Assembly: GCA_037446215.1 (NCBI GenBank)
Contig: JBBIJB010000039.1
Location: 1 to 20,569 of the forward strand
Direction of reading: 5' to 3'
Origin: Armatimonadota bacterium
Lineage (GTDB): Bacteria > Sysuimicrobiota > Sysuimicrobiia > Sysuimicrobiales > Humicultoraceae
Length of the DNA stretch: 20,569 nt
A program made the position numbers and the translations under genes. Shown in pieces: positions 10,848-19,959 of this stretch. How positions within the stretch are numbered: the first letter of the stretch is position 1; each line of letters starts with the position of its first letter. The notes below the pieces were generated by a model, which saw nothing but the letters and a program-made list of their open reading frames with translations, did not search any database and was not told the origin of the DNA.

Positions 10848-12965
10848 CTAGTCCGGGGCTCTCAATCTGGCCCGCACGTCCACGGCAACCGCGCCTCCGC
10901 CCGGCTCGAGCACGACCAGTGGGTTTATCTCGATCTCCGCGACGGCAGGATGCTGTGCGACGAGCCGGGCCATCGCCATGATCGCCGAGATCACGGAGCC
11001 GCGGTCCGCGGGCGGTAGGCCACGGTGGCCGCGCAGCCGGCGGCCTGCCCACGTGCCTTCCACCATCCGCTCGGCATCCTCCGGCGCCAGAGGGGCCAGC
11101 TCGAAGGCGACATCACGCAGTTGCTCGGCCTCGACCCCTCCTGATCCGAACATCACCAGGGGTCCGAACTGGGGGTCCTGCACGGCCCCCACTATTACCT
11201 CCTGCCCCGAACGCGCCATCCTCTGCACGTGCACGCCCGCTATCCTGGCTTCCGGCAGCGCGCGTCCGGCATTGGCGCAGATGCGCTCAAACCCCTTGCT
11301 GACCATTGTAGGGCTGTGCAGGCCCAGCGCCACCCCGCCGGCATCGGACTTGTGCGGTATGTCGGGCGAGGCCACCTTCAGGGCGACCGGATATCCCAGC
11401 CGCTCCGCGATCTCGACCGCCTCGTGCGCGCTCCCGGCAAGCTCTACGGGCAGCACCCGGATGCCGCACGTCGACAGGATCCGGCCGCACGCGGCCTGGT
11501 CCAGCGCGCCGCCCTGGCCGCCCGCCCAGGCCAGCAGGCGCGCGACCTCGCCTGGGAGGGCCCCTCCCTGTACGGGAGGGAACGGGTCTACGGGCGAGCG
11601 GGCGCGGATCTCGCCCCATCTGGCCAGCGCGGACATCGCGGAGGCCGCCGCTTCGGGCGAGCGGTAGGCCGGTATCCTCGAATCGCGAAGGAGCTCTGCG
11701 GCGCGGCGGACGGTGCGCTCCCCCATCAGCGCGACCGCCACGGGCTTGGCCGCCCCTCGCGCCACGCCGGCTATCGCCGCGGCCACCGACTCGGGCGAGA
11801 AGCGGGGAGGAGGGGGGAGCACCACGATAACGCCGTCCACCTGTGGGTCGTCCAGTAGGAGGCGAAGGCACGCGGCATAGAGCTCCGGCGACGCCGAGGC
11901 AAGGATGTCCACGGGGTTGCCGATGCCGGCCGCCCCGGGCAGCATCGCCCGCAGAGACGACTCGGTGGAGTCGCTGGGCCGCGCCAGCCGCAGGCCGCAC
12001 GCCTCAACGGCGTCCGCCGCGAGGACCCCCGGGCCGCCCGCGTTGGTGAGCACGGCGAAGCCGCGGCCCGCCGGGGGTGGGCACCAGGAGAGAGCGCACG
12101 CCCACTCGAACAACTCCTCGCTGTCGGCGGCCCGCAGCACCCCGGCGCGCCGGAACGCGGCATCGTAGGCCTCTTCCTGGCCGGCCAGTGCTCCCGTGTG
12201 TGAGGAGGCGGCCTTCCTGCCGCCCGGAGACCTGCCGGCCTTGAGCGCGATCACGGGCTTCGATCTGGTGGCCGCCGCGGCCTCCCGCACGAACCGTCGC
12301 CCGTCGCCCACCCCTTCCAGATAGAGGGTCACCACCCGCGTATGCGTGTCCGCGGCCGTCTGCGAGAGCACGTCGGTCTCCGTGACATCGGCCTGGTTGC
12401 CCAGACTCACCAGGCGCGAGAGGCCAAACCCTTGCGCCTCCGCCCACTCGACCACCGCGGCGCAGATCGCGCCCGAGTGCGATACGAACGCCACCTCACC
12501 GGCTCGCAGGCCACCCCGCGCCAGGAAGGTCGTGTCCAGGGGAAGGTGGGTGTCCAGAACCCCAATGCAGTTGGGCCCGAGCAGCCGGAGCCCGCCCTCG
12601 CGGGCGATCCTCAGGCACTCCTGCTCCAGCTCCTCGCCCTCGGCTCCTGCCTCGCGGAAGCCTCCTGAGACGATGACCGCGGCCTTCACGCCCCTCTGGG
12701 CGCACTGGCGGAGCGCTTCGGGGACCACCGGGGCAGGTACTATCAGCACGGCCAGGTCCGCAGGCTCCGGAACGGACGCGACGTCAGGGTAGAGGGGCAG
12801 GCCGAACAGGGCGCCTCCGGAGGGGTTGACCAGGTGGATCCCTCCCTGGTATCCGCAGTCCAAGAGGTTGCGCGCCAGCCCGTATCCCAGCTTGGACGGG
12901 TCCTGCGAGGCCCCGACCACGACGACCCCGCGGGGGTGGAAGAAGGGCTCAAGCGTTGGATCCAT
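10848..12965 (-). CDS. Acetate/acyl-CoA ligase (ADP-forming) family, fused alpha+beta
   Basis: CoA-binding N-terminus (VVVVGAS), LLGPNCIG, SLGNQADV, phospho-His motif SSHTGALAG, TNAGGPGV, NPVD. ATP-grasp C-terminus GYPVALK, HKSDAGGV, DPQFGPLVMFGSGG, EIEINPL. No GNAT domain. Confidence 0.92.
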   Translation of the reverse strand: MDPTLEPFFHPRGVVVVGASQDPSKLGYGLARNLLDCGYQGGIHLVNPSGGALFGLPLYPDVASVPEPADLAVLIVPAPVVPEALRQCAQRGVKAAVIVSGGFREAGAEGEELEQECLRIAREGGLRLLGPNCIGVLDTHLPLDTTFLARGGLRAGEVAFVSHSGAICAAVVEWAEAQGFGLSRLVSLGNQADVTETDVLSQTAADTHTRVVTLYLEGVGDGRRFVREAAAATRSKPVIALKAGRSPGGRKAASSHTGALAGQEEAYDAAFRRAGVLRAADSEELFEWACALSWCPPPAGRGFAVLTNAGGPGVLAADAVEACGLRLARPSDSTESSLRAMLPGAAGIGNPVDILASASPELYAACLRLLLDDPQVDGVIVVLPPPPRFSPESVAAAIAGVARGAAKPVAVALMGERTVRRAAELLRDSRIPAYRSPEAAASAMSALARWGEIRARSPVDPFPPVQGGALPGEVARLLAWAGGQGGALDQAACGRILSTCGIRVLPVELAGSAHEAVEIAERLGYPVALKVASPDIPHKSDAGGVALGLHSPTMVSKGFERICANAGRALPEARIAGVHVQRMARSGQEVIVGAVQDPQFGPLVMFGSGGVEAEQLRDVAFELAPLAPEDAERMVEGTWAGRRLRGHRGLPPADRGSVISAIMAMARLVAQHPAVAEIEINPLVVLEPGGGAVAVDVRARLRAPD

Positions 12966-13416: not shown

Positions 13417-14595
13417 CTACGCAGTTGATGTCGTACGGACCGCGGGGATGGTGAAGGAGAACGCGCTTCCCTTCCCGAGCCCGCCGCTGGCGGCCCAGAT
13501 CGCTCCCCCGTGGGCTTCGACCAGGTAGCGCGCGATGGTGAGACCCAGCCCGCTTCCTCCCACAGGTCGCGAGCGGGAGCGGTCCACCCGGTAGAAGCGC
13601 TCGAACAGGCGCGGTAGATGCTCCTCGGCAACTCCATGCCCCGTGTCCCGGACTTCTATCTGGATCCACCCGGGCTTGACCCTGGCCGAGATCGTGACGG
13701 CCCCAGGCGGGTCGGTGTATTGGATCGCGTTGCCGATCAGGTTGATCAGCACCTGCTGGATCCGGTTGGGATCGACCTCGGCCGAGGGCAGGCGTTCGGG
13801 GAGCTCCAAGCTCATGAGGAGCCCCTTGTCCTCGGCCTGCGGCCGCAGCCGTTCGGCCACAGCCGTTACGAGGTCCGCCACCGCCGTGGGCCGCCTGCTC
13901 ATCGCCAGCAGGCCTGCGTCCAGCCGCGACAGCTCCTCAAGGTCGCCGACCAGCCGCTGCATCCTGTGCACGTCCGCGGATACCCTTGCGAGGACCTCGG
14001 GCTCCGGGGAGAGCACGCCGTCGGTGAGCCCTTCCACATAGCCCCCGATGCCGGCCAGCGGGGTCCGCAGTTCGTGCGCCACATCGGCCAGCAGGGCGCG
14101 GCGGCGGGCCTCGGTCTTCTGCAGTGCCTCGGCCATCGTGTTGAGGCTGTCGCCGAGCTCCGAGATCTCGTCGCCGCCACCCGCGGGGACCCGCTCTTCG
14201 TAGTGGCCTTCGGCTATCCGGCGGCTGACTCCGGCCATGATCTGCAGGGGATGGGCTACGCGCCGCGCGACCAGGAGGCTTACCGCGCCCGCTGCAAGGA
14301 CCGCGGCGGCGCCACCTACAAGCAGGGCATCCACCAGACCGCTCCTGAAGAGATGCTCGACCGGCGTCGAAGGAGGTCCCCCCAGGCCCCGCCTGCCGCC
14401 CCCGGCTCCGCCTCCTCCTAGGCCGAGCCCCCCGTAGGAGTCGGACGCCTGTATCCTGCGGGCTATCTGGCTCGGGGCGAACAGGCTCGCGGACGCGGTC
14501 AGGACCGCGAGGCCGACAGCGATGACCGCCAGATAGGAGAGGAACAGCCTGGTTGCCAGGCGTCCCCCCGCCCTCGTCACAGTCCTACCCCACAT
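13417..14595 (-). CDS. HAMP-containing sensor histidine kinase (HisKA, BaeS-like)
   Basis: Two TM helices, HAMP (GDEISELGDSLNTMA), H-box DVAHELRTPL, N-box NLIGNAIQY, DTGHG, FERFYR, GSGLGL. Confidence 0.94.
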   Translation of the reverse strand: MWGRTVTRAGGRLATRLFLSYLAVIAVGLAVLTASASLFAPSQIARRIQASDSYGGLGLGGGGAGGGRRGLGGPPSTPVEHLFRSGLVDALLVGGAAAVLAAGAVSLLVARRVAHPLQIMAGVSRRIAEGHYEERVPAGGGDEISELGDSLNTMAEALQKTEARRRALLADVAHELRTPLAGIGGYVEGLTDGVLSPEPEVLARVSADVHRMQRLVGDLEELSRLDAGLLAMSRRPTAVADLVTAVAERLRPQAEDKGLLMSLELPERLPSAEVDPNRIQQVLINLIGNAIQYTDPPGAVTISARVKPGWIQIEVRDTGHGVAEEHLPRLFERFYRVDRSRSRPVGGSGLGLTIARYLVEAHGGAIWAASGGLGKGSAFSFTIPAVRTTSTA

Positions 14596-14607
14596 CGCAT
14601 CGTGCGG

Positions 14608-15297
14608 CTATCCTCCGTCGAACCTGTATCCGGCGCCCCTGACCGTGGTGATCACTTCCGGCTTGCTCGGGTCGTCTTCGAGCCTCTTCCGGAGCTCCTT
14701 CACATGGACGTCCACGACCCTCTCATCGCCGTAGAAGTCGCTTCCCCAGACCCTCTCGATGAGCTGGGCTCGGCTGAAGACCAGGCGGGGGTGGGTGGCC
14801 AGCGACAGCAGTATCTCGAACTGCAGGTTGGTCAGAGCCACGGGCTCGCCGTCCTTCCAGACCCGCCGCTCTCCCGGATCTATGCGCAGGCGCTGGAAGA
14901 CCAGCGGCGCCGGCCTCCCGCCCCGGGTGCGCCCCCTTCGTAGGACGGCCTTCACCCTCGCGACCAGCTCGCGGGGGCTGAACGGCTTGGTCAGGTAGTC
15001 GTCGGCTCCGATGCCCAGTCCCAGGACCTTGTCGCTCTCGTCCGAGCGGGCGGTGAGGAGTATCACGTAGGCCTCCGACCACTCCCTGACGCTTCGCAAC
15101 ACCTCGATGCCGTCCAGGCCCGGGAGCATGACGTCCAGCACGATCAGGTCCGGGCGCAGGCGGCGCGCCGCCTCCAGAGCCGCGGTTCCGTCCTCCGCCG
15201 CCTCGACCGCAAACCCGTCGCGCTCCAGGTATCTCCTGACGAGGTCGCGCACGGACTCCTCGTCGTCTACCACCAGCACCGTAGGGGGTGTGGACAT
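14608..15297 (-). CDS. OmpR/PhoB-family response regulator
   Basis: VLVVDDE, LDVMLPGLDG, LLTAR, GADDYLTKPFSPRELVAR; winged helix ERVVDVHVKELRKRL, TVRGAGYRF. Confidence 0.95.
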   Translation of the reverse strand: MSTPPTVLVVDDEESVRDLVRRYLERDGFAVEAAEDGTAALEAARRLRPDLIVLDVMLPGLDGIEVLRSVREWSEAYVILLTARSDESDKVLGLGIGADDYLTKPFSPRELVARVKAVLRRGRTRGGRPAPLVFQRLRIDPGERRVWKDGEPVALTNLQFEILLSLATHPRLVFSRAQLIERVWGSDFYGDERVVDVHVKELRKRLEDDPSKPEVITTVRGAGYRFDGG

Positions 15298-15488
15298 AGT
15301 CCCCGTGTCCTCTTGGGCCAGGCCGAGGGCAGGGCTACCCCGGCCGTGCCCTGTGCTCCTCTACTATCCGCGCCTCCACGCGCACGCGCCATCACCGGTC
15401 GGCATTCGGCGGGCGCGATCCCACATCTGGACTCTTACCCGCGCCGGCCGGAGTTCCTGCCGGGCGCGCCGCATCCGCGGCGCCCTGT

Positions 15489-15526
15489 GGGGATAATCCC
15501 CTCCGCGCCTCTCAAGGATACCCCGA
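15489..15526 (+). promoter_or_regulatory. Candidate response-regulator binding sites upstream of the redox operon
   Basis: Palindrome GGGGAT-A-ATCCCC (15489-15501) and related imperfect copy TCAAGGATACCCCGA (15512-15526). -10-like TACGCT at 15550-15555 with no clear -35. Confidence 0.4.
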
Positions 15527-15565
15527 TTCCGGGCCAGGGCCAGGGTCTGTACGCTGAAAGTGGCT

Positions 15566-15994
15566 ATGAGTGACAAGGCCCTAAGGGTTCTGGTCGCCGC
15601 GGGCGATGAGAGGTTCCGCGGGGCCCTCGGCGAGCTTGCCGAGGCCTCGCGCAGCCTGCTTCCCACGCAGATCGAAGTTGAACAGGTCTCTTCGCTCGGA
15701 GCGGTCCGCGAGCGCCTTGGCGCCTGGGCGCCCGACGTCCTGATCCTCGACTGGTACCTTGCTGCGGCCGACGTGCTCACCGCCATACAGGAGCTGGCCC
15801 TGGAATACCCCGGCCTCCGAACGCTGGTTCTACTGCCCGACTCCGGCCGTGAGTACCGCGAGGCGGCGTGGAACGCCGGGGCCTGCGCGTGTGTTCCGCG
15901 CGACCGCATAGACCCGGAGTGGCTGCAGGCGATCCTGTGCGTGATGAACCGAGCCAAGGAGCGCGAAGAGAAGATCCGGAGGCAGGTGGCGTGA
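15566..15994 (+). CDS. Stand-alone atypical (pseudo-)receiver domain protein
   Basis: CheY-like pattern LRVLVA...PDVLILDW...YPGLRTLVL...AWNAGA. Acidic pocket, Thr/Ser and Lys are degenerate. TGA overlaps the next ATG. GTG 15560 is an alternative start. Confidence 0.75.
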   Translation: MSDKALRVLVAAGDERFRGALGELAEASRSLLPTQIEVEQVSSLGAVRERLGAWAPDVLILDWYLAAADVLTAIQELALEYPGLRTLVLLPDSGREYREAAWNAGACACVPRDRIDPEWLQAILCVMNRAKEREEKIRRQVA

Positions 15995-17313
15995 TGGCGC
16001 ATTTGCGCGCGCCGATTCGCAGGGTCGGATCGCTCGTCTTCCTGACCGCCCTGGTGGCGATGCTGATTCTCCCGCTGGGAGTGGGCGCGCCGCCCGCGCC
16101 CTCGGGGCCGGCTCAGAGCGGCTGCGTGGCATGCCACACCAGCCGGACGATGCTGGAGCCGCTCGTGCCTCCACTGCCGCCTCCGCCTGCAGAGGGTGAG
16201 GGGTGAGCGGCCCCTCTGCCCCCGTCGGGGGCACCCTACGAGCGAAAGCTGGTTTCTCAGGCGTTCCTGAAGTCGACCCACGGCCGGCTCGGGTGCACGA
16301 CGTGCCACGCCGGAGCGCCGCAGACGCTGGATCGGAACTTGGCGCACAAGGGGCTCGTGCGTAGGCCCTCCGCGGACCCGATCAAGGCATGCGGAACCTG
16401 CCACTCCGAGACCGCCTCGAAGTTCTCGCGGAGCCTGCACTTCACCGCCCGTGGGCTCGAGACAGGGCTGAAGGCGCTCACAGGCCAGGTGCGGTGGGCT
16501 CTGTCGAAACCGACCTACCAGCGCTCGTGCAAGAGCTGCCACGCCACCTGCGGGGATTGCCACGTCAGCCAGCCGCCCTACATACCGCAGCCCCCGACGG
16601 TACTGGGCGGCCTGCTACGCGGGCATGAGTTCGTGCGCACGCCGCCGGCGGATCGGACCTGCGGCGGCTGTCACAGCGGACGGGTCTACGCCGAGTTCAC
16701 CGGCAGCTACGAGGGCTTCCCGGCGGACGTGCACTTCTCCAAGGCGAAGATGACCTGCACCTCGTGCCACACCGCTGCCCAGATGCACGGTGACGGCAGC
16801 ACGCCTGCCTACAGGCGGGAGGTCAAGACCAAGCCCGCCTGTACCGACTGCCACCCGACGGCCGCCCCAGGCAAGAGCAGGCTGCAGGCGCACAACGTCC
16901 ACGGCAACAAGCTCAACTGCGCTGTCTGCCACGGCGGCATCGTCAAGAGCTGCTTCGGCTGCCATGCCGGCGAGGGCTCGAGATCGCAGCCCACGTTCAA
17001 GATCGGCCGGAACACCGACCCAAACATACCCAACGCCTTCACGGTGCTCCGGCACATTCCGACGACCAAGGACATGATCGATCGGCCGACCGGCCTCTCT
17101 GGGGCGCTCGCGAACTTCGACCGAGTCCCCACGTGGAAGCCGGCGACGCCGCACAACATCCAGCGGGTGACGGCTCGCAGCCGCACCTGCGACGCCTGCC
17201 ACAACAACCCAAACCTGTTCCTGCGGCTACAGGACCTTGATCCCAGGGGCTCGCAGGCAAACGGCAGGGTGGTTATGTCGCCACCCCCGCCGCTACCACC
17301 AAGACCAAGGTAG
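15994..17313 (+). CDS. Secreted multiheme cytochrome c (11 CXXCH), putative selenoprotein with Sec71 encoded by in-frame TGA 16204-16206; 439 aa
   Basis: ORF-track pieces 15868..16206 and 16339..17313 share a frame. The bridge is open and reads AAPLPPSGAPYERKLVSQAFLKSTHGRLGCTTCHAG. Signal peptide occurs only in the upstream piece. Heme motifs: CVACH, CTTCH, CGTCH, CKSCH, CGDCH, CGGCH, CTSCH, CTDCH, CAVCH, CFGCH, CDACH. SECIS-like hairpin follows the TGA. Confidence 0.85.
16207..16233 (+). other. Putative bacterial SECIS element
   Basis: UGA, 10 nt, then UGCCCCC-GUC-GGGGGCA: 7-bp stem (16217-16223/16227-16233), apical loop starting with GU, 17 nt between UGA and loop. Confidence 0.75.
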
Positions 17314-17325
17314 GAGGTATTCAGA

Positions 17326-17769
17326 ATGTACAAGAGACTCTCGATAGTCGCCCTGCTGGCAGTAGCGCTGATCGTGGCGCCCGCTGCCGCGGCACCTTCT
17401 CCAACGCCTGGGGACGCCGCCCTTCAGTTCATTACCAACCTGCCCGACGGCTTCCGCAGCATCGCGCCCGCGGCCCTCAAGACCCGGCTGGACGCGGGTG
17501 AGAAGCCGTTCCTGCTCGACGTCCGCGAGCCCAACGAGACCGCGGCGGGCGTCATCGCAGGGGCGGTCGTGATCCCGATCCGCTCCCTCGCCGCGAACAT
17601 GGGCAAGATCCCCACGGTCAAGGAGGCCGAGATCATCGCCATCTGCCAGTCGGGGCTGCGCTCTTCGTACGTGGCCATGGCGCTCGTGATGAACGGCTAC
17701 ACCAACGCCAGGACCATGTCGCTCGGGATGCGCGAGTGGTACGCTCAGAACTGGCCCGTCGTCAAGTAG
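17326..17769 (+). CDS. Secreted single-domain rhodanese (sulfurtransferase)
   Basis: Signal peptide MYKRLSIVALLAVALIVAPAAAA, LLDVREPNE, GVIAGAVVIP, active loop ICQSGLRS, SLGMREW. SD AGGAGG. Confidence 0.92.
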   Translation: MYKRLSIVALLAVALIVAPAAAAPSPTPGDAALQFITNLPDGFRSIAPAALKTRLDAGEKPFLLDVREPNETAAGVIAGAVVIPIRSLAANMGKIPTVKEAEIIAICQSGLRSSYVAMALVMNGYTNARTMSLGMREWYAQNWPVVK

Positions 17770-17790
17770 GAGCCAGGCAGGCGCAGTAGC

Positions 17791-17828
17791 GAGCACCCCC
17801 GGGCCCATGCCCGGGGGTGCTTGTTCTT
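17791..17828 (+). terminator. Intrinsic terminator of the redox operon (probably also serves the convergent two-component genes)
   Basis: AGCACCCCCGGGC-CCAT-GCCCGGGGGTGCT (13-bp stem) followed by TGTTCTT. Confidence 0.85.
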
Positions 17829-17852
17829 GCTGTTGGATGGGGTACCGGTCTT

Positions 17853-18515
17853 CTAGGGCTCCTCTTCCAGGAGCCCCCTGCGCAGCGCGTAGCTCACCAG
17901 ATCTGCCCGCGTGTTGAGCTCCAGCTTCTCCATTATCCGGGAGCGGTAGGTCTCGACGCTCTTGGGGCTTAGGCCGAGCTGCTCCGCGATCTCGCGGGAG
18001 GTGAAGCCGGAGGCGACCAACTTCAGCACCTCGCGCTCCCGCTCGCTCAGCCGGTCGTAGCTGTCTCGCTCCTCGCCCCTGCTCACGCCCGCGATGACAT
18101 CCTCGAGCAGCCTTCGCGTCATCGCCGGGTGGAGGAAGGCGCCCCCGCCGGCGACCGTGCGGATGGCGGCCACCAGCTCCATGTCGGCGGCGGTCTTGTT
18201 GACGTACCCTGCCGCCCCCGCCTTCAGCACCGGGAACAGGTAGCGCTCCTGAGCGTGCACCGTGAGGATGAGTACCTGTGAGGGGAGGTCAAGGGCCCGT
18301 ATCTGCCGCGTCGCCTCCAGCCCGTCCAGCCCGGGCATGCTGATGTCCATGATCACGACGTCGGGGAGGAGCCGGCCGCTGAGCTCAACCGCCTTGTGGC
18401 CGTCCGATGCCTCGCCCACGACCACCATATCCGCCTCCTGCTCGATCAGCGTGCGCAGGCCGGTGCGCAGCACCGGGTGGTCGTCCGCCAGCAGCACACG
18501 AATCGGCTTAGCCAT
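17853..18515 (-). CDS. NarL/FixJ-family (LuxR-HTH) response regulator, NreC-like
   Basis: VLLADDHPVLR, MDISMPGLDGLEAT, ILTVH, GAAGYVNK; HTH LSEREREVLKLVASGFTSREIAEQLGLSPKSVETYRSRIMEKL. Confidence 0.95.
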   Translation of the reverse strand: MAKPIRVLLADDHPVLRTGLRTLIEQEADMVVVGEASDGHKAVELSGRLLPDVVIMDISMPGLDGLEATRQIRALDLPSQVLILTVHAQERYLFPVLKAGAAGYVNKTAADMELVAAIRTVAGGGAFLHPAMTRRLLEDVIAGVSRGEERDSYDRLSEREREVLKLVASGFTSREIAEQLGLSPKSVETYRSRIMEKLELNTRADLVSYALRRGLLEEEP

Positions 18516-19611
18516 TGCCGCCTCCCTCCCTGGACGAAGATACCCGGTCCGGCGCGAGGGCGGCCACCGCGGTTCCGCCGCCCGGCGACGACCTGATCGT
18601 CAGTTCACCGCCTATCAGCGCCATCCTCTCGCGCATCCCCGAGATGCCGAGCCCACCCCGGCCGGGCCGCAGCACGCTGGGTGTGATGCCGACGCCGTCG
18701 TCCCTCACCTCCAACTCGATGCGATCCTCCCCGCGCCGCAGCCGTACCCAGGCGCGGCTCGCGCCGGCGTGGCGGCGCATGTTGGTGAGGGCCTCCTGGG
18801 CGACCCGGAACAGGGCCAACTCCACCTCGGGACGCATCCGACCCTCGCACCCCTCACACAGGAACTCGATCTGGGTGGGCCCCACGGCGTTCAGGTCGTC
18901 GACGTAGGCGTGGAGGGCGGCGGTCAGCCCCAGGTCGTCAAGCACCGCGGGGCGGAGCTCGACGGCGATCCTGCGGACGTCCTCCAGGGCACGCGCGGCA
19001 AGCTCGCGTAGCTCCGTCACCCTCTCCTGGGCCCTCTCCGGTGTCCGGGCCTGTTCGAGAAGGCGGAGCCGGACGAGCAGCGAGGTCATCGACTGCGCGG
19101 CCTCGTCGTGAAGCTCCCGCGCGATCCGGCGGCGCTCTTCCTCCTGCGCCCCCAGGATCCGGCCGGGCAGATGCTTCAGGTGCTCGGCCTGCTCCTCGAT
19201 GGCGGTCACCATGCTGTTGAATGTGTCCGCGAGGCGGCCGAGCCGCTCGTCCGGCAGTCCTTCCGTAGCCACCCTGACACCGCTTCCGCCCGCACGGATG
19301 GCGTCCACCGCCCCCTGGAGGTTGTCCAGCGGCCGCAGGACCGCCCTCAGCACCAGGTAGTTCAGCACGAGGCTAACGGCCAGCCCCACCGCGGCGAAGC
19401 CCGACATCAGGCCGTAGTGCGGGTGTCCGGGGTGGAGCGCCCCGTGTCTGAGCGCCACCGTCATGCCCGTGATGGCGCCGCCGACGACCACAACGGCGTT
19501 CACCAGGAGTATCTTGTGGAGCAGGGGGATCCGGGCGATGCGGCTCAGGGCGCGGCCGGGCAGCAAAGGCAGGCGATCTGGCAGCGTCGGCGGGGCCTCT
19601 GGGTGGGTCAC
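18508..19611 (-). CDS. HAMP-containing HisKA_3 sensor histidine kinase (NarX/NreB/UhpB-like)
   Basis: Two TM helices, HAMP, QEEERRRIARELHDE, LRPAVLDDLGL, FRVAQEALTN, RDDGVG, GLGISGMRER. 8-bp overlap with the regulator. Confidence 0.94.
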   Translation of the reverse strand: MTHPEAPPTLPDRLPLLPGRALSRIARIPLLHKILLVNAVVVVGGAITGMTVALRHGALHPGHPHYGLMSGFAAVGLAVSLVLNYLVLRAVLRPLDNLQGAVDAIRAGGSGVRVATEGLPDERLGRLADTFNSMVTAIEEQAEHLKHLPGRILGAQEEERRRIARELHDEAAQSMTSLLVRLRLLEQARTPERAQERVTELRELAARALEDVRRIAVELRPAVLDDLGLTAALHAYVDDLNAVGPTQIEFLCEGCEGRMRPEVELALFRVAQEALTNMRRHAGASRAWVRLRRGEDRIELEVRDDGVGITPSVLRPGRGGLGISGMRERMALIGGELTIRSSPGGGTAVAALAPDRVSSSREGGGNG

Positions 19612-19752: not shown

Positions 19753-19959
19753 TTAAGGCACCGGCTTGACGTTGGCGGCCTGGGGTCCTTTCTGTCCCGT
19801 GGTCACCTCGTACTCAACTTTCTGGCCCTCCGAAAGGCTCTTGTAGCCTTCCTGTATGATCGCGGAGTAGTGGACGAAGACATCCTTTCCACCCTCGTCC
19901 GGAGTTATGAAGCCGTAGCCCTTTTCAGCGCTGAACCACTTGACGGTTCCTATAGGCAT
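19753..19959 (-). CDS. Cold-shock protein (CspA family)
   Basis: [15 protein letters not shown] (RNP1), DVFVHYSAI (RNP2), [10 protein letters not shown]. Confidence 0.97.

Follow-up and report, generated by a model that had tools for sequence, protein, structure and literature searches.

We analyzed a 20,569-nucleotide stretch of DNA from an Armatimonadota bacterium (GenBank assembly GCA_037446215.1, contig JBBIJB010000039.1; the whole stretch is called the window here) and found in it an operon for an 11-heme cytochrome c and a rhodanese. Comparison with homologous sequences indicates that an in-frame UGA at codon 71 of the cytochrome is read as selenocysteine (Sec). We put at roughly 60% the probability that the two proteins form a molybdenum-free reductase of sulfane sulfur (polysulfide/thiosulfate), with the rhodanese loading an arm of the cytochrome that carries the Sec. 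The nearest named relatives are Ca. Sysuimicrobiota/CSP1-3. The features on which the reading depends are:

15994..17313, + strand: 11-heme cytochrome c selenoprotein, predicted to be exported, 439 amino acids, Sec71; an OTR-like core is preceded by a two-heme extension at the N-terminus that bears the Sec loop
16204..16206, + strand: in-frame UGA, codon 71 of the cytochrome, read as Sec71 (GEG-U-AAP)
16217..16233, + strand: hairpin resembling a selenocysteine insertion sequence (SECIS), with G in its loop, 13-29 nucleotides after the U of the UGA
17326..17769, + strand: single-domain rhodanese (PF00581), predicted to be exported, 147 amino acids, active-site Cys107, no lipobox

Of 177 related stretches, 79 loci were retained, and the window brings the data set to 80. 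Site 71 is TGA in 61 loci, Cys in 15, and neither in four (L019, which is truncated; L081, apparently frameshifted; and L030 and L047, which have lost the residue); it is never TAA or TAG. This exchange of UGA71 with Cys among homologues, in a protein with 11 CxxCH motifs, bears out the original prediction of a Sec in an exported multiheme cytochrome. The hairpin behind the window's UGA has z = -2.3 relative to synonymous recodings, two out of 100 of which are as stable. Extending the comparison to all loci, for the ten codons 9-39 nucleotides downstream of the site, gives a mean z of -2.15 for TGA loci versus +0.06 for Cys loci, with z < -1 in 49 out of 61 and two out of 15, respectively; G occupies position +20 in 57 of the 61 TGA loci. 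Because the register varies between clades, pairing counted in one fixed register is high only to a moderate degree (43-87% per pair), and the comparison with synonymous codons carries more weight. The selA gene scores above cut-off in 57 out of 60 TGA genomes versus two out of 15 Cys genomes, which are counts over related genomes and not independent. The window's own genome, which is 91% complete, has selA, selB, tRNA-Sec (selC), and selD above cut-off, together with cytochrome c maturation genes. Its selD itself contains an in-frame TGA (G000:C18:15924-16847, L121), and in six of the 80 loci (L032, L075, L083, L085, L089, and L091) selA and selB are only a few kilobases away from the cytochrome gene.

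The near-complete database matches comprise 112 that begin immediately after the Sec site, 20 with a loop Cys, 32 without one, and 68 partial entries of other kinds. Four entries (P0095, P0128, P0129, and P0158) have Trp at or beside the Sec position, reflecting either a change of TGA to TGG or genes called with a different genetic code. Database annotation, with its 112 entries beginning just after the site, takes the UGA as a real stop, so that the locus would encode a small monoheme protein followed by a 10-heme protein. We give this next to no credence, given the TGA/Cys exchange, the absence of TAA and TAG, the hairpin confined to TGA loci, and the co-occurrence with selA; moreover, the 10-heme part would have no export signal.

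The heme and histidine pattern was examined in an alignment of 77 rows, three of the 80 loci being omitted as truncated or broken. All 11 CxxCH motifs are conserved, as are nine further His (96, 118, 149, 211, 247, 265, 300, 303, and 387) and two Arg (R230 in 76 out of 77 rows and R353 in all 77); residue 71 is the only conserved Cys/Sec outside the CxxCH motifs. Since there are 11 motifs but nine further conserved His, two hemes appear to have no distal His. An AlphaFold2 model (115 rows) has a mean confidence score (pLDDT) of 91, lower in the Sec loop (76/59). Octaheme tetrathionate reductase (OTR) of Shewanella (PDB 1sp3; TIGR04315) is the only chain with Z ≥ 5 among 48,161 (Z = 9.7 over 275 amino acids; root-mean-square deviation 4.5), while Foldseek gives no match at E ≤ 0.001 and OTR at 5e-3. 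A profile match to OTR (E = 1.2e-8) makes hemes 3, 4, and onward colinear with the OTR hemes. Heme 4 (C179-H183) aligns with the OTR CTSCH motif, which we take to mark its catalytic heme.

The cytochrome thus shares with OTR the core fold and the heme spacing. It differs in three extra hemes, the Sec/Cys arm, the rhodanese partner, and a sequence identity of 18%, and we rejected membership in TIGR04315, since it has 11 hemes and not eight and scores 19.6 bits against a cut-off of 375. The catalytic heme of OTR is described as having a Lys ligand (in the text available from PMC13562315); in sequence, this ligand has no conserved counterpart here, no Lys reaching 40% of the 77 rows between H149 and C179. 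Fold and heme order, and the frequent promiscuity of multiheme enzymes (noted in PMC13510729), would suit a direct reductase of tetrathionate, nitrite, or hydroxylamine acting at an open heme independently of the rhodanese. We regard this as very unlikely: besides the missing Lys and the low TIGR04315 score, NrfA/NrfH-like and TtrA-like genes are present elsewhere in the genome, and the rhodanese would be left unexplained.

The family as a whole spans about ten phyla, according to a quick version of the tree used for lineage spread only. A search recovered 233 clusters at 50% identity (E ≤ 1e-30), some of which are only distant multihemes. Anoxynatronum, Gudongella, Desulfitibacter, and Thermanaerosceptrum are among the cultured carriers. 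No NCBIfam or Pfam family matches the cytochrome above its family-level cut-off, and a single-sequence search of the PDB finds cytochrome c7 only. The family is not among the 119 selenoprotein families tabulated in the portion of PMC13188914 (2026) that we consulted; the words "cytochrome" and "heme" are absent from the main texts on deep-Sep and BSepDB; and nowhere in the literature searched, a scope that leaves aside subscription journals, the contents of BSepDB, and the MccSep data files, is it described as a selenoprotein.

The original prediction named the lack of a conserved link to rhodanese or sulfur genes as grounds for giving it up, and the link proves to be strong. A rhodanese gene adjoins the cytochrome gene in 74 out of 80 loci (54 downstream, 20 upstream) in about ten phyla, and the two are fused in database proteins P0155 and P0173. 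In the other six loci, the rhodanese is 2.2 kb off in one, three stop at a contig edge, and two have none. The partner has one, two, or four domains depending on the lineage. That of the window scores 51 bits to PF00581 (cut-off 22.2), with the loop C107-QSGLRS, and C107 is invariant across nine aligned rows; its gene is separated from that of the cytochrome by a 12-bp gap containing TAGGAGGT, and each protein has one N-terminal hydrophobic stretch, from which export is predicted. We dropped the idea that cytochromes without Sec pair with rhodaneses without Cys, since the partner in L047 retains Cys in its domain 1 and P0173 has no loop Cys yet an active-looking rhodanese. Other neighbors vary by lineage: NrfD and an Fe-S protein at 13 out of 20 loci in Chloroflexota, joined by an 8-CxxCH cytochrome in the case inspected (L083); ResB/CcsA in Bacillota; upstream multihemes and putative porin genes in Ignavibacteria; and TusA, DsrE2, SQR-type, and CsoR-type genes in some CSP1-3 loci. 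NrfD and Fe-S genes near L015 were set aside, since they belong to a TtrA-like complex and not clearly to the cytochrome module.

Within the phylum, the cytochrome shares its place in a regulatory cassette with the polysulfide reductase PsrABC. In the window this cassette comprises:

15486..15529, + strand: conserved upstream element TGTNNGGRAA...CCCGATT, including a palindrome at 15489-15501
15566..15994, + strand: atypical stand-alone receiver (pseudo-receiver), 142 amino acids, identified by alignment (PF00072 at 21.2 bits, under the cut-off of 30.2)
17788..17825, + strand: terminator-like hairpin, from folding and a shuffle test, separating the operon from the convergent pair
17853..18515, - strand: NarL/LuxR-type response regulator (REC + GerE), from a domain scan
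18508..19611, - strand: HAMP-HisKA_3 sensor kinase with two transmembrane helices and a short His-rich loop, from a domain scan and hydrophobicity

The pseudo-receiver is present in 13 of the 94 genomes of the phylum and is followed by the cytochrome in seven (in one of these, G084, only the cytochrome signal peptide is visible at the contig end) and by PsrA in six. The PsrA of locus L162 scores 1069 bits to PDB 2vpw (Thermus-type). In all five contigs that are long enough, genes for an Fe-S protein, NrfD, and an exported rhodanese with 37-40% identity to that of the window come after PsrA; a rhodanese follows in both slot types wherever the contig reaches that far. Both types of cassette occur inside the window's genus. 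In relatives, PsrABC with its periplasmic Sud-like rhodanese thus has the operon slot, the regulators, the upstream element, and an exported rhodanese in common with the cytochrome, which comes with a heme chain instead of molybdopterin, Fe-S, and NrfD subunits and has no membrane anchor in the locus. Since relatives carry a molybdenum PsrA in this slot, the cytochrome is probably part of a molybdenum-free way to respire sulfur compounds. It probably does the job of PsrABC plus a sulfur carrier, as a regulated, extracytoplasmic system.

Because the shared cassette heads PsrABC and a rhodanese in relatives, polysulfide and thiosulfate are favored as substrates over selenite. A role in selenite or tellurite reduction, or in selenium salvage, could draw on weak matches to the Geobacter ExtM/N/O models (about 40 bits versus cut-offs of 200-800), on the selA and selB genes flanking six loci, and on the reported reduction of selenite by MccSep (PMC13510729, as far as that source was available). 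We hold it to be quite improbable, however, with 13 out of 15 Cys forms residing in genomes without selA, the slot held in common with PsrABC, and the induction by thiosulfate in Dethiobacter described below.

The PsrA proteins of CSP1-3 have a Pro-rich GG-(U/C)-AGP loop, encoded with TGA in five out of seven genomes and with Cys in two:

L163:5424-5480 (also L164, L166, L167, and L172): in-frame TGA of PsrA in the GG-U-AGP loop, with a hairpin behind the TGA

The corresponding loop in 2vpw is GGCSGP (C388). Polysulfide reductase is not among the 119 families in the consulted table of PMC13188914, and the sequences suggest that the TGA-type PsrA of CSP1-3 is likely a second unlisted selenoprotein. 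The catalytic subunit of PsrABC thus likewise has a Pro-rich GG-(C/U) loop, resembling PPLPPPPAEGEG-U-AAP of the cytochrome. Homology between the two is unsupported; since the likeness is no greater than composition explains, we read it as convergence. Cys forms of the cytochrome have GGCGG-type loops (GGGCGG and GAGCGG) that resemble the GGCGG swinging arm of SoxY, and TsdA and SoxA with their His/Cys hemes offer a further comparison; the loop is a likely carrier of sulfur to a heme, and no homology is claimed. Here the arm is part of the cytochrome itself.

A cultured organism provides a further link. A search from the Bacillota clade identified WP_008516925.1 of Dethiobacter alkaliphilus, which is 39% identical to the window's cytochrome (369 columns, E = 3e-84). 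Its cluster mate MCW3489883.1 is OMD50_RS07060, which matches DealDRAFT_1917 in 98% identity and in mass as given in the published tables. DealDRAFT_1917 is listed as a 10-heme protein with no signal peptide, beside a rhodanese (PMC10376724), and has been described as SirA-like (PMC10376724; PMC5609068); the string "seleno" occurs zero times in the main texts of these two papers, and they pass over the missing N-terminus. Ten hemes and no signal peptide are just what truncation at the UGA gives, and the nearest locus to the Dethiobacter protein (L116, 62% identical) has a UGA. DealDRAFT_1917 therefore appears to be a truncated member of the family. In the data presented there, its level on thiosulfate exceeds that on ferrihydrite 2.4-fold (q = 0.032, three peptides; PMC10376724) in a strain without Psr/Phs, and both Dethiobacter strains are reported to reduce thiosulfate without molybdopterin enzymes (PMC10376724; PMC5609068). 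The PsrABC slot exchange and this Dethiobacter link are what is new about the cytochrome family.

The same system could run in reverse, oxidizing sulfide or sulfane sulfur in the periplasm or carrying out one branch of disproportionation, with the rhodanese unloading the product. Consistent with this are neighboring SQR-type, TusA, DsrE2, CsoR-type, and heterodisulfide-reductase-like genes (L021, L131, L134, and L164-166), a report of sulfide as donor in CSP1-3 (the portion seen of PMC11604079), and, from the text of PMC10376724 consulted, sulfur disproportionation by Dethiobacter AHT1 and an increase of the protein of strain Z-1002 under Fe(II) oxidation. We nevertheless think it unlikely: the slot partner PsrABC is a reductase, the Dethiobacter protein rises with thiosulfate as acceptor, and Z-1002 holds the cluster but cannot disproportionate.

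We infer the substrate, direction, docking, and electron donor of the cytochrome as follows. The exported rhodanese would take the sulfane sulfur of polysulfide or thiosulfate as a persulfide on Cys107, a persulfide on the active-site Cys being established rhodanese chemistry. It would pass the sulfur to Sec71 on the flexible Pro/Gly-rich arm, forming a selenosulfide, and the arm would deliver it to one of the hemes that lack a distal His, with heme 4 the likeliest. Two electrons from the heme chain would then release HS-. These electrons would come from a quinol oxidase. The original prediction noted that no quinol-interacting membrane subunit is encoded here, and we likewise find none within the locus; the partner must therefore be encoded elsewhere, and calling the system self-contained was an overstatement. 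NrfD (PF03916) has no match in the 91% complete genome. Candidates by sequence reading are an NrfH-like protein (contig C10) and a cytochrome b/heptaheme pair (contig C84). The latter contig encodes, at G000:C84:282-7493 (L170), a TtrA/ArrA-like molybdoenzyme, an Fe-S subunit, cytochrome b, and heptaheme and pentaheme cytochromes, with no NrfD.

Alternatively, the cytochrome may be an electron conduit or hub in which Sec/Cys71 serves only to ligate a heme axially or to tune its redox properties, while the rhodanese feeds a different enzyme. This would fit the two hemes without distal His, the many homologues without Cys/Sec, the multiheme and putative porin genes that lie upstream in Ignavibacteria, and the Z-1002 induction under Fe(II) oxidation. 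It is distinctly improbable in our view, because the rhodanese linkage is near-obligate and extends to fusions, the cytochrome sits in place of a catalytic complex in an operon with no other catalytic gene, and Sec is kept across phyla.

The closest functional parallel to the proposed sulfane-sulfur reductase is MccSep/ExtKL of Geobacter sulfurreducens (NF040886; PDB 9wt8), which, according to the available part of PMC13510729, reduces polysulfide with Sec and heme. Both are periplasmic multiheme c cytochromes with Sec/Cys variants, molybdenum-free S-S cleavage matches the role proposed here, and a rhodanese (ExtH) lies in the wider MccSep gene cluster. The same source gives MccSep five hemes versus 11 and a Sec325 with a heme-ligating Cys239, where the window's cytochrome has Sec71 and no further conserved Cys; MccSep is also inactive on thiosulfate. 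NF040886 has no match to the cytochrome at E ≤ 0.01, a profile comparison reaching only E = 0.008 on a CxxCH stretch. With 11 CxxCH motifs and not five, no NF040886 match, and a Sec early and not late in the chain, we rejected membership in MccSep/ExtKL. MccSep is not among the listed structural matches of the cytochrome model, its presence in those libraries being uncertain. In function the cytochrome would resemble both PsrABC with Sud and MccSep, and in build it resembles OTR, yet it is a member of none of these.

Several observations weigh against the proposed reductase. Activity, selenium incorporation, and docking are predictions. Out of 52 N-terminally intact database homologues, 32 have no Cys in the loop, although Sec forms are under-counted because 112 entries begin just after the site. 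Two loci with long flanks, L025 and L030, have no rhodanese, and the control cassette is limited to one or two families. No genome has both cytochrome and PsrA, but this exclusion alone is not significant (P = 0.34), and the argument is therefore positional. The likeness of arm and PsrA loop is compositional, 48 out of 500 shuffles scoring as high. The window's genome also encodes PhsA-like and TtrA-like molybdoenzymes, and the organism as a whole is thus not free of molybdenum enzymes. Among the hosts, many are Syntrophales, Tissierellia, or Anaerolineae, groups not known as typical sulfur respirers, and sources on host phenotype (PMC7763609, PMC7988955, and PMC3306737) yielded nothing of use. 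Searches did not recover the DNA that encodes the Dethiobacter protein, so the UGA itself went unseen there. In the parts of PMC10376724 consulted, the proteomic signal of DealDRAFT_1917 is thin (three peptides), the partner rhodanese is unchanged in level, and the Z-1002 protein increases about 7.6-fold under Fe(II) oxidation. Z-1002 also has the same cluster yet cannot reduce S0, which speaks for sulfane sulfur derived from thiosulfate no less than for S0.

The remaining parts of the locus concern its control. The layout is as first described: three + strand genes, with the pseudo-receiver TGA stop sharing 1 bp with the cytochrome ATG (TGATG) before the 12-bp gap, and a NarL/HisKA_3 pair, both genes on the - strand, converging on the hairpin at 17788-17825. 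The claim of a strong terminator stands as to stability (17 pairs, z = -4.3, no equally stable structure in 200 shuffles); the T-tail is modest and on the + strand only. We found no match to a sigma-70 promoter at the locus. The upstream palindrome GGGGATAATCCCC alone is no stronger than chance (best score 7, matched by 76 out of 200 shuffles), but the core and position of the element are kept in all nine aligned upstream regions (five cytochrome-type, four PsrA-type), and this sequence conservation makes it a probable binding site of the NarL-type regulator.

In the pseudo-receiver the phospho-acceptor Asp62 is invariant, and the switch Thr/Ser and conserved Lys are replaced by Leu and Arg in all five copies. 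It carries a conserved GACAC-PRDR motif, and it is possible that it senses thiols or persulfides; cytochrome-type copies retain the GACAC motif plus one further Cys. The sensor part of the kinase is present in 14 of the 94 genomes, and its sequence suggests the intramembrane-sensing type. In L130, an orthologue of the NarL-type regulator (82% identical) immediately precedes the pseudo-receiver. In four close relatives (L015, L016, L017, and L022) the kinase, NarL, pseudo-receiver, cytochrome, and rhodanese genes are co-directional; because the pair is directly upstream in these relatives, the convergent pair of the window belongs to the module. Pair and pseudo-receiver, linked as observed, would form a lineage-specific control acting at the upstream element. 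In L132:78-1232 (G110:C134), the kinase N-terminus is fused in frame to the cytochrome C-terminus, followed by a rhodanese, as a result of deletion or misassembly. An ADP-forming acyl-CoA synthetase gene (window 10848-12965, - strand) has orthologues that immediately precede the kinase in L015, L017, L022, L162, L168, and L171 and may travel with the control cassette. The divergent OmpR/BaeS-type pair at 13417-15297 (- strand) is not a conserved neighbor in the four closest relatives, and 19753-19959 (- strand) is labeled a cold-shock protein gene by sequence reading only.

Taking these lines together, we suggest tentatively, with somewhat less than even confidence, that the cytochrome represents a second, independently evolved class of Sec-heme sulfur reductase on an OTR scaffold; that with its rhodanese it replaces PsrABC and is the missing Dethiobacter-type thiosulfate reductase; and that the GG-(U/C) arm is a convergent hand-over device, some PsrA proteins being unrecognized selenoproteins. 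An uncatalogued selenoprotein family, cut at the UGA by databases over about ten phyla, would be added. It offers a candidate answer to how the cultured D. alkaliphilus, without Psr, Phs, or Dsr, reduces thiosulfate and polysulfide. If true, sulfur respiration escapes psrA/phsA marker surveys in Anaerolineae, Ignavibacteria, Bacillota, Syntrophales, and CSP1-3, and the exchange with PsrABC inside one genus would be a natural experiment that compares catalysis by heme and by molybdenum.

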